Source of the DNA: Candidatus Woesearchaeota archaeon
GTDB taxonomy: Archaea; Nanobdellota; Nanobdellia; Woesearchaeales; CAIVOO01
DNA: 63,326 bases
Assembly: GCA_038890975.1 (NCBI GenBank)
Contig: JAWAEZ010000001.1
Coordinates: 1,819 to 65,144, forward strand
Reading direction: 5' to 3'
Position 1 is the first letter of the stretch, and each line of letters begins with the position of its first letter. Made by a program: the position numbers and the translations under genes. The notes beneath the pieces are model-generated. The model did no database searches, was not told the origin of the DNA, and saw nothing but the letters and a program-made list of their open reading frames with translations. Below are positions 48,501 to 51,860 of the stretch, one piece after another.

Positions 48501-50670
48501 TTGTATTTACGCAAATTTTTTCCCCTTCAATTTCCGGGATAGGAACTAAATCTTGTCTTGAAAGGTCCTCATTTAAAACACCACCACCATAAACATCTCC
48601 TGGTTGGCAGTTTTCATTTACAAGTGAAGAGAATTTCTCTTCTCCGATACCTTGTAAAGATTTTATCCCTCCTTCGGTAACTAAAACTGCACTTAATAAA
48701 CAACCAACACCTTGATATCCATTTTGTTTATAATCACTAAAAGATTTTATTCCTTTACAAATATTGTTTTTAGATTCGTCATCTTTAAAACTTTTAAAAT
48801 ATTTCTGTCCTTCTTTTATGTACATAGAAGAAGTCCCCCCACCATCAATTTTAATTGCGTAGTTACAGTAATTTTTTAATTGGTCCGCTAAATTTCTCAA
48901 AGTTATATCATTTAGATAAACAAATAACCCTATTGTTCCATCTTTTCCGATACATATACCATTTTTTTCTTTTCCTTTAGGGTGTTTTTTTTCATAGGCA
49001 TATTCTGGATCTTTATCATTAAAAGAAGAAACTTTACCTTCATCAACCAAAAGCACCCCTTGTAATGCGTATTTAATATTTGTTTTAGAAGGAAATAATC
49101 TATTAAATTGTTGTAAAGACACAATACCAAATTCGTCATTATTCGTTATATAAAAAACATGACGTGTTTCACAAAAATCTAAATTTTCATAAGGAAAATG
49201 TTGTTTTCCTTCTTCAATGTATAAACAAGTGGAGCCTACACTTTTAGTAGAACTGCCCCTTACTAAATTAGTATAGCCAAAAAAACCCCCATTCGTTGCC
49301 GCCGCTATTTTTAGACCCTTATTATTGGCGCTGTCAACAATTGTTTTAAGTGTAGCGAGATCCTGCCCAGTAATTTCCGTAGCACTACGTATTTTCAAAT
49401 ATTTTGGGGAAGATACCCATATCATCTTTAAATCGGAAGTTCCAGAATTTTGATTGCAATCCCCTTCTAATATTTTTCCTGTTGCTGCTTCCACGGGGCA
49501 TATTTTAAGTTTCCCATTTTCTGCTGCTTCCACAAGAACAAAAATGTTTTTGTTAGGGTAACCTCTTAACTCGTGTGACGAAGCAGTTCCCACAACAATT
49601 TGTTCCGTGTTCTCATCTATTTTGTTTCTTATATAGCAATGTTGATGGCCGGAGAATATTGCTATTATATCGTTATTCTCTTTAGCAATTGTTTGAAGAT
49701 TATTATTATACACATCATCCCTGCAGCTGGGGGAAGTTTTAATTGCTGGGAGATGAGTTATTATTATTGTGGGTTTATTCTTATTTTTTTCCAAATCTTT
49801 TTTAAGCCACTGGACATTTGCGTACTGGTTCTTATAATCAAGGAAAACAAAGTGGTAACCTTTGTAATCAAAAGAGTAAGAGTGAGCCCATTCGCCTTCT
49901 ATTGCTATGTTTTGTGGTTTTTTATCTGCCCAAAATTTATTGTAAGAACTTATCGTTTCTTGCTTATCATATTCGTGGTTTCCTGTTGTAGGGAATATTG
50001 GATAATTTTTTAGTTCTTTATACTCGGCAAAATTAAATTGCGTATTTGGCAAACAACAAGAAAAATCGCCTGCGTGCAATATTATTTCTGGGTCTAGTTT
50101 TTTAATTGTGTTGGATAAATCGCTACTGCTTATTCCCTTACTTGTGTGAGTATCGCTTATTACTACGAATCTGAATGCTTCTGCGTTGCTAGAAAGAATT
50201 ATTGAACAGAATGTTATAGTAAAAATCATAACTCCTACTTTTTTAAGATGTTTTCTTCTCAATAGAAAAATAATAAAAAAAATGAATATCACCAACAAAA
50301 ATGAAAAAATTATTATTTTCAAAATGATGTTTTCTTTTTTTACTTTTGTTTCTTCGCCTGATAAGTAAAATTCTTCCGCAAAAGAATTTGCCTCTTCTTC
50401 ACTATACCCCGCTTTTAAATATTTTTCTTTTATTTCTTCTTTTGTCAAATAGTTACATTTTCCTTTACAACATACCTCATTAACAAAGTCGCTGGTATTT
50501 TTTATTATTATTCCTATGCATTTTTGGTAATCTCCGCAAACTGCGATTCCTCCTGCCTCTGAACATGTTACTCCGTAGGCGTTTATTTCCTGCTGCGCAG
50601 AAATAGTTCTATTTATTAAGATAACAATTGCCAAAAATAATAATGTTTTAACAAAATCTTTGCGTTTCAT
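45574..50670 (-). CDS. 1698-aa secreted/membrane multidomain protein: Cys-rich N-terminus, 2 TM helices, metallophosphoesterase, NAGPA-like domain 1, M15/VanY-like peptidase, NAGPA-like domain 2, Fn3-like modules
   Basis: Signal MKRKDFVKTLLFLAIVILINRTISA. Metallophosphoesterase motifs VISDTH, HAGDF, GNHEYD, ITHLP, SGHQHC (nt ~49516-50175). NGGFF...IDGGGTSSMY (~48676-49428) and NAAFF...LDLDGGGSTQMY (~47131-47868). SPFRS...HYNGYAMDI...EGWHFEY (~48085-48468). C-terminal PPPPVED...LSWDKS...VGYKIY. SD AAGGTGA and an ATGA overlap with the SLT gene. Confidence 0.8.
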   Translation of the reverse strand: MKRKDFVKTLLFLAIVILINRTISAQQEINAYGVTCSEAGGIAVCGDYQKCIGIIIKNTSDFVNEVCCKGKCNYLTKEEIKEKYLKAGYSEEEANSFAEEFYLSGEETKVKKENIILKIIIFSFLLVIFIFFIIFLLRRKHLKKVGVMIFTITFCSIILSSNAEAFRFVVISDTHTSKGISSSDLSNTIKKLDPEIILHAGDFSCCLPNTQFNFAEYKELKNYPIFPTTGNHEYDKQETISSYNKFWADKKPQNIAIEGEWAHSYSFDYKGYHFVFLDYKNQYANVQWLKKDLEKNKNKPTIIITHLPAIKTSPSCRDDVYNNNLQTIAKENNDIIAIFSGHQHCYIRNKIDENTEQIVVGTASSHELRGYPNKNIFVLVEAAENGKLKICPVEAATGKILEGDCNQNSGTSDLKMIWVSSPKYLKIRSATEITGQDLATLKTIVDSANNKGLKIAAATNGGFFGYTNLVRGSSTKSVGSTCLYIEEGKQHFPYENLDFCETRHVFYITNNDEFGIVSLQQFNRLFPSKTNIKYALQGVLLVDEGKVSSFNDKDPEYAYEKKHPKGKEKNGICIGKDGTIGLFVYLNDITLRNLADQLKNYCNYAIKIDGGGTSSMYIKEGQKYFKSFKDDESKNNICKGIKSFSDYKQNGYQGVGCLLSAVLVTEGGIKSLQGIGEEKFSSLVNENCQPGDVYGGGVLNEDLSRQDLVPIPEIEGEKICVNTNVCFSEPGDCCVLKEGAVRQIYPLYTLFKQRGCKLKIVSPFRSLKIYKEKWDASEKNPQTNCPPRDDAGKIMKEGYTEENFKHCPHYNGYAMDIWVECDPNDPSREHISYEEKIKIACQAGWVNYHHEGWHFEYGSNYWKRAKSKDKNLCQWPLQDSVLERERSGEGATTLYKTHNAITLDNDQQIILDPTNYIKEDYKKTEIKKIPKDAISLTTKQTNFGLMNIIEIDVNYFDVRTMSAKTIMDRTRKKCNNDCRLSISDIKWNQLNVVAAVNAAFFERGNQVKDTDEHPNYNEYEGMVSNYELYGRPQGIYIEDGKIISPFYYTKKKGYFVVQNGQPKILEVPNVEEAKKVLLRENSDIQYAVNGILKAGEDSGSRLTGVCITKENKLKLITTESGGNIQVFLDYLRDNENCQDALDLDGGGSTQMYYNYEGQNKVLKSSVDRKVANFIVVIPKAFAYGSPELCPPISVQNSPEEEILYGAYNVFPSFSVEVDKDFSEYRLLEDYSREYFEQCRNEKNILECFSEKSRSNEDFSFYFKKQGQTTNDNGWYTYCERKEEAFINDFVERYEDCRDSQTDSCYCEIPEIRNIPNLKIVVTEITPKDFLLVAPNIPYSLELYSGVFNTIFPKEIRTNGMIFNNYLEEKNYILRYYKEKKLSFEKDKANLPKCDISQNNIIKICAVSKKNKVFGINQMDGKLEETPLVYRFALETKDLPPPPVEDVKAEDLKRRKQLLLLSWDKSVAGDVVGYKIYESQRAFNNLDLEKAKSSPDINLVKNIDVGSAISVYKFVGVRCNLQNNVCDYVLAVKYSKDGDQSLMEIKQDQLIYEEETGKFYYVLSVEDDISYYYGVTAIDRKDQESTSFLKTPLGTSVNDIPPGLVSVTKQSLNEKSVKIKWDVPSFYIDGTQVEEKIKDKMSFEIYQKCPNSDMNVFSMSGKEIIQAPDCETKIIAKIGNIPSKEESIDEPIFKALGII

Positions 50671-51860
50671 CCGTCACCTTGGCTTGTTATTTGCAGTTGT
50701 TCAAATTTATGTTTCAACGCCATAACTCTTTCAACATATCTCTCTGTTTCAGCGGGGATTTGTTGTAATGTTCCTTCTGCCGCAATTATATCTTCCCATT
50801 GAACCTCTTCAGGATTTTTAGAAATTTTTTCTGCCACTTTTTTGATTTTTGTTTTGTTTAATCCTCCGTTATAGGTTGCAAGAGCGAATCTTATATTATC
50901 TTTATATCCACCATAAACTTTATAAGCAAGATATTTCAGGTATTTAACTGCGGCTTTTATACTTTCTTCGGGGTCTGTTCTATAATCGTAATCTTCGCAA
51001 GGTTTTTTTCCTCCACCGCCCTTGCTACAAAGACCGTAACTTGCCGCTGTTCCAGGCATAAATTGTGTTAAACCAACAGCACCTACATAACTTCTTGCAT
51101 TAGGATTCCCCCCTGACTCTTGCATTATTAAAGCAACAATAAGCGATTCTGTAATGCCTGGAATCTCAGATGCTCCACCCTCTTCTTCTATTGCTTTTCT
51201 TATGAATTCTCCATATTTTAGGTATATCTGCTTTAGTTTTTCTTCTTCGCTACCTCTTATTTTAATATCTTGAGCGGTATTATAAGTTGTGTAACTAACC
51301 CCTGGCGTTATTACTCCTTTCTTTATTTCTAAACTTAGGGGAAGTTTTGCGTCGCCTGTTACTAATGTCTTTGGAGAAGAAGAATCACCGATGTTTACTA
51401 CGCTTATTTCATAATTTTTGTCCGTAGGTATCATAAGAGAAGGGGATAAACGAAAATATTCGTCTAATAAATTATTTAAGCTTTCGCCATATGCATTTTG
51501 AAGATTTTTATTTTTAGTATTATCCGCGTCTGGGATGCATTTGTCGTTGTCTAACTCCCAAACCGCAAAACCTGCATATCTTTGGCAATCCTCTGGCTTC
51601 TCTGGAAAACCTCCCATTCTGGCTGTTCTTAGAAATGCTTCTTGGGCTGCGAGTTTGGCTGATGTGTCGACATAAAATAGTGTTTCTTCTGCATCTTGGT
51701 ATGAAGAAAATAAAAGTACGGCCTTTAAACCTATGTTCCCTGCGAATTGTTTTTGCTCTCTTATTATGTAAAAAAGCATCGTGACCTGTGCTATTATCAG
51801 TCCTGTTACTACTATTATTATGAAAAATTTCGCTTTTTTATTTTTTATTATTTTTTTCAT
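50667..51860 (-). CDS. membrane-anchored lytic transglycosylase (SLT / GH23 domain)
   Basis: N-terminus [21 protein letters not shown]. SLT motifs [33 protein letters not shown]...YNGG (nt ~50856-51233; putative catalytic Glu codon 51117-51119). Confidence 0.8.
   Translation of the reverse strand: [397 protein letters not shown]

Follow-up and report, generated by a model that had tools for sequence, protein, structure and literature searches.

Lytic transglycosylases such as Slt70, MltC, MltE/EmtA and MltF (PF01464, CAZy family GH23) share an SLT catalytic domain with the ES, GL(T/M)Q and YNxG motifs and a lysozyme-like fold. Genes for transglycosylases that act on murein (bacterial peptidoglycan) have been described several times in Woesearchaeota and Pacearchaeota and taken to mean that these archaea interact with bacteria (PMC8204110, which cites Rinke 2013 and Castelle 2015; PMC9723730; PMC11537232). 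This study was concerned with such a gene in a stretch of 63,326 nucleotides (the window) from a Candidatus Woesearchaeota archaeon (positions 1,819 to 65,144 of contig JAWAEZ010000001.1, forward strand, NCBI GenBank assembly GCA_038890975.1). The gene encodes a 397-residue protein in which an SLT domain follows an N-terminal region that will be called the N-module, and it overlaps a second gene that encodes a giant protein of 1698 residues. Related loci are designated by L numbers and individual N-module proteins by P numbers.

The window protein can be compared with several described systems. Bacterial Slt70 and Mlt enzymes carry a superhelix, a domain of unknown function or a lipobox, whereas the window protein is encoded by an archaeon, carries the N-module, which is not known in bacteria, and presumably acts on the wall of another organism. 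The large murein-like lytic transglycosylases of fam00969 (Castelle et al. 2021, PMC8204110) and the GH23 genes reported by Vigneron et al. 2022 (PMC9723730) belong to the same lineage, contain the same domain and have been given the same proposed role, the binding or degradation of bacterial walls. What is described there is the SLT domain and the size of the proteins. The largest N-module proteins, which carry several hydrolase domains and reach 1328 residues, probably overlap with fam00969. According to Strock et al. 2025 (PMC12352652), the haloarchaeal peptidoglycan hydrolases Woldo and Danwoldo of Halogranum kill bacteria, and such hydrolases are prominent and diverse in Nanoarchaeota; pili or pilins are not mentioned in that paper. 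Woldo and Danwoldo resemble the window protein as murein hydrolase domains of bacterial origin that occur in archaea and would be directed at bacteria. However, they are described there as soluble proteins secreted by Tat or Sec with a PG_binding_1 domain, while the window protein is predicted to be membrane-anchored by the N-module, has no known wall-binding domain and is encoded in a block of genes for surface-filament-like proteins. VirB1, EtgA, FlgJ and BB0259 are likewise SLT enzymes encoded in the gene cluster of a surface machine, but theirs open the sacculus of the producer, and an archaeon is expected to have none. Polymorphic toxins also combine a constant N-terminal part with variable C-terminal toxins, as the N-module is combined with exchanged enzymatic heads across hundreds of clusters; the N-module proteins differ in having wall hydrolases as heads in place of nucleases or pore formers, no evident immunity gene and an anchor in place of a known secretion-system adaptor.

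Since SLT/GH23 genes of these archaea are already in the literature, the presence of an SLT domain in an archaeon is not a new finding. No description of the N-module, of the varied hydrolases joined to it, of its constant position as the close of a pilin-like gene block or of the split-gene link set out below was found in the literature searched, whose coverage was incomplete. The sequence comparisons suggest a wider pattern, undescribed in that literature, of archaeal anti-murein enzymes built on a shared N-module. We consider it probable that the window encodes part of a toolkit of interchangeable enzymes, anchored at the cell surface, with which these archaea would breach the murein of bacteria. 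The parts of the SLT gene are as follows.

50667-51860, minus strand: gene for the N-module and SLT protein, 397 residues (open reading frame, Pfam SLT match, AlphaFold2 model)
51753-51860, minus strand: residues 1-36, in which the basic stretch KNKKA precedes a hydrophobic helix (8-36) (sequence, model)
51312-51752, minus strand: residues 37-183, conserved N-module core (profile search, alignments)
51249-51311, minus strand: residues 184-204, flexible linker of low model confidence
50679-51248, minus strand: residues 205-394, lysozyme-like SLT/GH23 lobe, with the Pfam core of residues 230-341 at 50838-51173 (Pfam, Foldseek)
51117-51119, minus strand: GAG codon of the predicted catalytic glutamate E248 in a Q-E-S motif (Slt70 alignment)

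The preliminary description of this DNA, made from the sequence alone, had assigned the protein to family-1 SLT/GH23 and proposed a search with PF01464. That search bore the assignment out, matching residues 230-341 with an E-value of 1.3e-24 (86.4 bits, cut-off 21.3), well outside what chance would give, and SLT and SLT_2 were the only Pfam domains to match the protein. In a phmmer alignment with Escherichia coli Slt70 (1sly/1qsa), E248 and S249 of the query (IMQES) pair with the catalytic E478 and with S479 (ARQES), which agrees with the catalytic glutamate proposed earlier. The other motifs and the peptide quoted in that description are also present, with GLTQ at residues 263-266 and YNGG at residues 330-333. 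E248, S249, G263, Q266, Y330, N331 and G333 are all invariant in four full-length homologues. The active site looks competent from sequence. Among sequences of solved structures, the best matches were the lytic transglycosylases MltC, Slt70 and MltE. Among NCBIfam models, the protein was most similar to the lytic transglycosylase of flagellar assembly of the BB0259 type (1.5e-12, with a score well short of the cut-off). Pfam identified no wall-binding domain of known type (LysM, PG_binding_1, SH3 and others) in the protein.

The AlphaFold2 model reached a predicted local distance difference test (pLDDT) score of 87.8 with an alignment of 142 sequences and only 43 with the four full-length homologues. 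Scores for the blocks within residues 201-394 were mostly 86-97, with short dips near 281-290 and 361-370, and fell below 50 for linker residues 184-197. A goose-lysozyme-like helical fold is predicted for the SLT lobe. Foldseek matched the full model to MltC, MltF and MltE with a probability of 1.00 (MltC 4c5f at an E-value of 7e-6; MltE with a TM-score of 0.63-0.71, normalised to the target) and also to Slt70, and only SLT folds were among the matches listed. The N-module in the model consists of a helix (43-81), a hairpin (94-99), a second helix (119-137) and two strands (150-157 and 164-171). The preliminary description had also recognised an N-terminal anchor and an uncharacterised domain of about 200 residues, and these correspond to the helix at residues 8-36 and a domain of about 190 residues with no Pfam match. 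Residues 1-36 are predicted to form a membrane anchor or a class-III-like signal.

In a collection of 5.8 billion proteins only three full-length homologues were identified (39-46% identity), and among the full-length homologues the N-terminal half is better conserved than the SLT half. The nearest matches outside this family are bacterial, with about 42-45% identity over roughly 100 residues. An exhaustive search with a profile of the N-module identified 854 clusters (50% identity) at E-values of 1e-3 or below, 205 of them at 1e-10 or below. The match is always N-terminal, in proteins of 131 to 1328 residues, and G44, D65, C92, C108, P110 and Y150 are invariant or nearly so. Of 149 further listed proteins (P0016-P0164), 24 are shorter than 240 residues and look like stand-alone modules. 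No relative of the N-module was found in Pfam, in NCBIfam or by profile against PDB sequences. A scan of GTDB genomes with N-module patterns, which were too specific, also gave no relative.

The partners of the N-module were counted by scanning 109 members of 240 residues or more against Pfam. The numbers of members with each partner domain were as follows.

SLT: 18 of 109 members
Peptidase_M23: 16 of 109
VanY: 11 of 109
Peptidase_M15: 8 of 109
fn3: 5 of 109
NlpC/P60: 4 of 109
Amidase_2: 3 of 109
Glucosaminidase: 3 of 109
Phage tail lysozyme: 2 of 109
Lysozyme_like: 2 of 109
M15_2, M15_3 and M15_4: 1 of 109 each
3D domain: 1 of 109
Peptidase_C39_2 and Peptidase_C39: 1 of 109 each
SLT_2: 1 of 109

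The partners recognised by Pfam are therefore murein hydrolases almost exclusively. These heads lie directly C-terminal to the N-module, and some proteins carry several per chain. For example, P0098 contains Amidase_2, M23 and SLT, and P0051 contains M23 and SLT; other members are P0038, with Glucosaminidase and fn3, and P0054, with NlpC/P60. The N-module is thus a constant handle for interchangeable murein-hydrolase heads across related archaea. VanY, M23, MurNAc-L-Ala amidase (MurNAc, N-acetylmuramic acid) and NlpC/P60 enzymes have as substrates murein bonds that are absent from pseudomurein. Because several heads of the family belong to these groups, a bacterial target can be argued for the family as a whole.

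The second gene of the pair ends the block and encodes a protein with several further hydrolase domains.

45574-50670, minus strand: gene for the giant multi-hydrolase protein, 1698 residues (open reading frame, Pfam)
49633-50175, minus strand: residues 166-346, calcineurin-like metallophosphoesterase (PF00149, 4e-18; weak match to purple acid phosphatase in the PDB)
48061-48528, minus strand: residues about 715-870, VanY-like LAS metallopeptidase between two NAGPA domains (motifs, profile)
47143-47700, minus strand: residues 991-1176, NAGPA phosphodiester glycosidase (PF09992, 1.7e-27, best of 2 stretches)
45772-47058, minus strand: residues about 1205-1633, C-terminal module (homology to N-module fusion proteins)
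50674-50680, minus strand: Shine-Dalgarno-like AAGGTGA, 3 nucleotides ahead of the giant gene's start codon

The giant protein starts with a signal peptide, a cysteine-rich piece and two hydrophobic segments (115-137 and 146-163), and it is predicted to be secreted or membrane-tethered. A second NAGPA copy, judged by eye, occupies about residues 415-665. The VanY-like region contains SPFRS, HYNGYAMD and EGWHFEY, which correspond to the SxxRS, HxxGxxxD and ExWH motifs. As a single sequence this region was below threshold for Pfam VanY (E-value 0.0019, 18.4 bits, cut-off 25), and a profile of three orthologues matched the D-Ala-D-Ala carboxypeptidases of PDB entries 4mph (4.6e-6), YodJ 4ox3 (1.8e-4) and VanY 5hnm with the motifs aligned. 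The C-terminal 430 residues or so were matched by BLASTP to P0051 of L022 (5.5e-21) and P0038 of L023 (2.3e-17), and residues 1394-1647 match a separate gene of 614 residues in L021 (1.7e-18). From this homology to N-module proteins that are single chains, the gene for the handle with SLT and the giant gene of this lineage correspond to two parts of a polypeptide that other lineages make as a single chain.

The two genes are joined by an ATGA overlap at 50667-50670 of the minus strand (TCAT on the plus strand), in which the TGA stop of the SLT gene is 50667-50669 and the ATG of the 1698-residue frame is 50668-50670. The preliminary description had reported both this overlap and the AAGGTGA motif, and each is where it had been placed. 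Comparable GGTG or GGAGG motifs precede the genes at 58312-59028, 56247-57230 and 55836-56144. The overlap is kept in six other loci with 38-46% G+C content (GC), namely L001, L017, L018, L019, L024 and L025, and thus in 7 of 7 loci including the window. The Shine-Dalgarno-like motif is not conserved in the loci that share the overlap. Since the overlap is kept where the motif is not, coupled production is better supported by the overlap than by the motif, and the SLT and giant genes would be co-expressed. In L025 (NCBI GCA_964485195.1, from 20790 onward) the giant orthologue has 1737 residues and contains Glyco_hydro_3 in addition to Metallophos and NAGPA, and the gene that follows SLT in L024 encodes just 547 residues. 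The added domain and the short gene indicate that the partner gene is itself modular and variable.

The encoding organism was assigned to the Ca. Woesearchaeota type of DPANN archaea by its archaeal gene set and by relatives in metagenome-assembled genomes (MAGs), with a hot-spring source. The window contains GatD/GatE and GatA/GatB amidotransferase genes, topoisomerase (Topo) VI A and B, Cdc48, deoxyhypusine synthase, OapB/OapC and HerA, together with an RPA-type OB-fold protein, a RadA-type recombinase, a RIO kinase, a KH/Pno1-like protein and ribosomal protein S2. The best matches to Topo VI-B among GTDB genomes come from an uncultured archaeon of sediment (79% identity) and from Ca. Woesearchaeota MAGs (69%), and those homologues of one block gene that bear names are labelled Ca. 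Woesearchaeota or Nanoarchaeia. The window DNA was detected in hot-spring metagenomes, its GC is even (0.27-0.36), and no murein synthesis (mur) genes were found in the 63-kb window. The preliminary description had taken the organism to be an archaeon and had raised bacterial markers on the same contig as the contrary case; the markers found in the window are archaeal and that case does not apply.

In the mechanism proposed for this toolkit, the SLT and giant proteins would be translated in tandem and exposed on the archaeal surface. The SLT lobe would cut the bond between MurNAc and N-acetylglucosamine (GlcNAc) in the glycan strands of bacterial murein, by the non-hydrolytic reaction of its family that yields 1,6-anhydroMurNAc, the VanY-like domain would trim stem peptides, and the NAGPA and phosphoesterase domains may remove wall polymers linked by phosphodiesters. 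The wall of a contacted bacterium, either host or prey, would thus be dismantled locally, and the breach would permit attachment, access to the cytoplasm or lysis. As an archaeon is not expected to make murein itself, the target would be another organism. The sequence data show the domain identities, the catalytic residues, the archaeal origin, the operon position, the hydrolase partners across the family and the conserved gene overlap; from these we infer the enzymatic activity, the murein of a foreign bacterium as substrate, the surface exposure, the translation in tandem and a physical connection, if any, with a pilus.

Such a link is proposed for the gene block in which the pair is found. 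The SLT gene is the second-to-last of about 19 genes on the same strand, from 63319 down to 45574, and the giant gene is the last. Apart from the last gene and the first, which is truncated where the window stops, all the block genes (about 17) begin with K-K-[A/G/S] and a hydrophobic helix. In L002, genes for T2SSE, two T2SSF proteins and a canonical archaeal pilin come just before the block, about 6-10 kb upstream, an arrangement similar to that of "system 1", the archaeal type IV filament system with two platform proteins (bioRxiv 10.64898/2026.04.22.720090). The handle may be a cleaved pilin-like subunit, a component of a filament base or a mere anchor. We offer as a tentative and rather doubtful extension that the N-module serves for docking or delivery in a machine specific to DPANN and related to type IV filaments, which would present interchangeable murein-hydrolase heads to bacteria as an archaeal contact-dependent wall breacher. 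The predicted order of elements in the N-module (transmembrane segment, helix, two strands, helix, two strands) may resemble that of proteins of the PilN/PilO/GspM type.

Several observations weigh against a murein-breaching toolkit or its proposed connection to a filament. About half of the long N-module members (n = 109) have no C-terminal domain recognisable by Pfam. The linker is about 20 residues in length, so the anchored protein may not reach the sacculus unless it is released or contact is very close. DPANN archaea in culture are not known to have bacterial hosts; the hosts are archaea. The only metatranscriptome of the same study gave only spurious matches of 18 nucleotides and nothing at the locus. 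With regard to the filament, the loose K-K-[A/G/S] motif with a helix occurs in 84 of 159 N-module members, while a strict FlaFind-like pattern for class-III signals occurs in 15 of the 159 and is absent from the window protein. No pilin model of Pfam or NCBIfam matched any block protein. Genes for an ATPase, a platform protein or a prepilin peptidase were found neither in the window nor over the 10 kb that precede the block in L024 and L025, where that region holds two giant adhesin-like genes, and L003, a close relative of L002, has no adjacent T2SSE/F genes. Because adjacency to T2SSE/F is not general, as L003, L024 and L025 illustrate, the pilus connection is a lead and not a result.

The same enzymes could serve other purposes or other substrates. 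They might digest free murein and necromass in the hot-spring mat with no contact with a living bacterium, which would feed an auxotrophic archaeon amino sugars, amino acids and phosphate. DPANN genomes are biosynthetically poor. Nutrition derived from peptidoglycan has been proposed for Pacearchaeota (PMC11537232). The giant protein combines NAGPA and metallophosphoesterase domains of a trimming type, to which the L025 orthologue adds GH3. However, the enzymes appear to be membrane-anchored and not freely secreted, no muropeptide transporter or catabolic genes are adjacent, and a pilin- or adhesin-like block fits contact better than bulk digestion. Scavenging is therefore judged unlikely as the sole explanation, although it and contact with bacteria are not mutually exclusive. 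It is less likely still that the GH23 domain acts on a glycan other than murein, such as the pseudomurein in the wall of a host methanogen, a polymer similar to chitin or the glycans of an S-layer, with an archaeon as the partner. The archaeal hosts of cultured DPANN would fit this proposal, and some GH23 enzymes are chitinases. Against it, the SLT motifs are canonical for the murein type, and the N-module heads include VanY/M15, M23, Amidase_2 and NlpC/P60, with a VanY-like domain next door. Enzymes of these groups act on D-amino-acid stem peptides and MurNAc-L-Ala bonds, which are absent from pseudomurein.

The location of the gene within a filament-like block, and the NCBIfam similarity to a flagellar assembly enzyme, would suit a space-making transglycosylase of the VirB1/EtgA/FlgJ/BB0259 type that opens the wall of its own producer to let the filament machine of the block be assembled. 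The host is an archaeon, though, with no murein synthesis gene in the window, and M23, VanY, NlpC/P60 and amidase heads, several per protein in chains of up to 1328 residues, are more than a hole punch needs; this explanation is very improbable. An artefact or foreign DNA, either a mis-assembled bacterial or viral fragment or the lysin of a provirus, has the least to recommend it and is considered exceedingly improbable. In its favour, SLT domains are characteristic of bacteria and phages, and the nearest outside matches are bacterial as noted above. Nevertheless, GC is even, archaeal genes flank both sides, no phage genes are present, an independent Logan contig of 13 kb and about 25x DNA depth span the junctions, and at least ten contigs, independent and of different sample origin, share the gene order, so that synteny already contradicts this explanation. 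A mis-assembly, a provirus and a remodelling of the producer's own wall have all been rejected. A toolkit aimed at the murein of bacteria is the interpretation retained.

The remaining features of the block, and the genes that mark its end, are listed below.

51857-52351, minus strand: anchored protein of 164 residues, whose stop overlaps the SLT gene start by 4 nucleotides (homologues collinear in L001, L002, L003 and L017-19)
52348-52896, minus strand: anchored protein of 182 residues, with a 4-nucleotide overlap with the next gene (open reading frame, synteny)
52913-53839, minus strand: anchored protein of 308 residues, a diverged relative of positional orthologues that contain Amidase_3 (BLASTP 4.6e-11 to L023:7880-8872)
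54737-56144, minus strand: five tandem small pilin-like genes (82-102 residues) with KK[AG], a hydrophobic helix and a cysteine-rich C-terminus (open reading frames, sequence)
56247-63319, minus strand: upstream part of the block, with eight genes with a basic N-terminus and hydrophobic helix plus a cysteine-rich repeat protein cut by the window end (collinear in L001, L021, L024 and L025)
44060-45516, minus strand: conserved downstream neighbours RPA (44509-45516) and YdjM (44060-44512), marking the end of the block (Pfam)

Spacers within the block are short or the genes overlap, and the last four genes overlap by 4 nucleotides each. The gene order recurs in independent contigs with 34-46% GC, and the N-module gene ends the block wherever the contig reaches far enough. 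RPA then follows the N-module gene in the window, L002, L005, L021, L022 and L023, with YdjM and RadA usually next. In this position the N-module is unfused in L002, L003, L005 and L020, fused to SLT in the window, L001, L017-19, L024 and L025, fused to VanY in L021 (Pfam, 5.7e-8), and joined to other heads in L022 and L023.

The 308-residue gene lies three places upstream of the SLT gene. Its positional orthologues carry Amidase_3, a MurNAc-L-Ala amidase domain (L023:7880-8872 at 1e-12; L022:4861-5844 at 1e-9). The window protein itself has no Pfam match, and its zinc-ligand positions appear to be lost, with IEIRG in place of SIH. By its sequence it may be a non-catalytic murein-binding relic. 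The five small genes are paralogous to one another and to small genes in L001, L018, L021, L022 and L023. Their N-terminus is KK[AG]..LS.N followed by the helix, and their six-cysteine C-terminus is weakly defensin-like (Pfam Defensin_beta, E-value 7e-4 and 20 bits, where the cut-off is 21; AtDEF-like, 3e-4). The cysteine-rich repeat protein at the window end (61802-63319, minus strand) contains three "ETDVDCGG..C..C" units, a transmembrane helix and a tail rich in lysine and glutamate. Its homologues have about 1000 residues with faint Big_13 matches, and in L024 and L025 the homologue follows a protein of 2300-2450 residues with CarboxypepD_reg repeats, which is probably an adhesin. A scan for bacterial promoters was uninformative for an archaeon (81 found, 79 expected). 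Terminator-like hairpins are commoner between 44000 and 63326 than in shuffled sequences (22 versus 9.1 +/- 3.0), and the strongest is an inverted repeat with a 14-bp stem at 54676-54709, at the junction of the genes at 54737-55003 and 53875-54771.

Elsewhere in the window, the following tRNA genes were identified by Rfam and ARAGORN, and introns are indicated by their lengths of 88-112 nucleotides.

1067-1165, plus strand: intron-type tRNA gene
13469-13558, minus strand: intron-type tRNA gene
37531-37642, minus strand: intron-type tRNA gene

ARAGORN called two of the four tRNAs reported by Rfam, one with an odd Tyr(ATA) anticodon that probably results from an intron. The two amidotransferase systems, GatA/GatB and the archaeal GatE/GatD, are encoded at 1901-4762 (plus strand) and 19949-23369 (minus strand). 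A fluoride riboswitch (RF01734) at 36797-36866 (plus strand) scored 43.4 bits against a gathering score of 34, and the frame of 139 residues downstream of it (37087-37506) has no Pfam match. In GTDB, relatives of Topo VI-B with 51-67% identity occur in MAGs labelled Vicinamibacteria, Acidobacteriota or Methanosarcinales (L014, L016, L012 and L013), and some of these contigs may be DPANN DNA mis-binned into other genomes.

With its hundreds of clusters, its constant position at the close of a surface-filament-like block and its coupled partner of several hydrolase domains, the N-module handle could serve as a sequence marker for interactions between archaea and bacteria. The type of head, whether a cutter of glycan, stem peptide or cross-bridge, could hint at the kind of bacterial wall that is attacked, and the hot-spring source makes these enzymes candidates for robust lytic enzymes. 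If the N-module were indeed part of a delivery machine, a large share of Woesearchaeota and Nanoarchaeia would have bacteria, and not archaea, as their hosts, and the kind of head they carry could be used to predict which bacteria these are.

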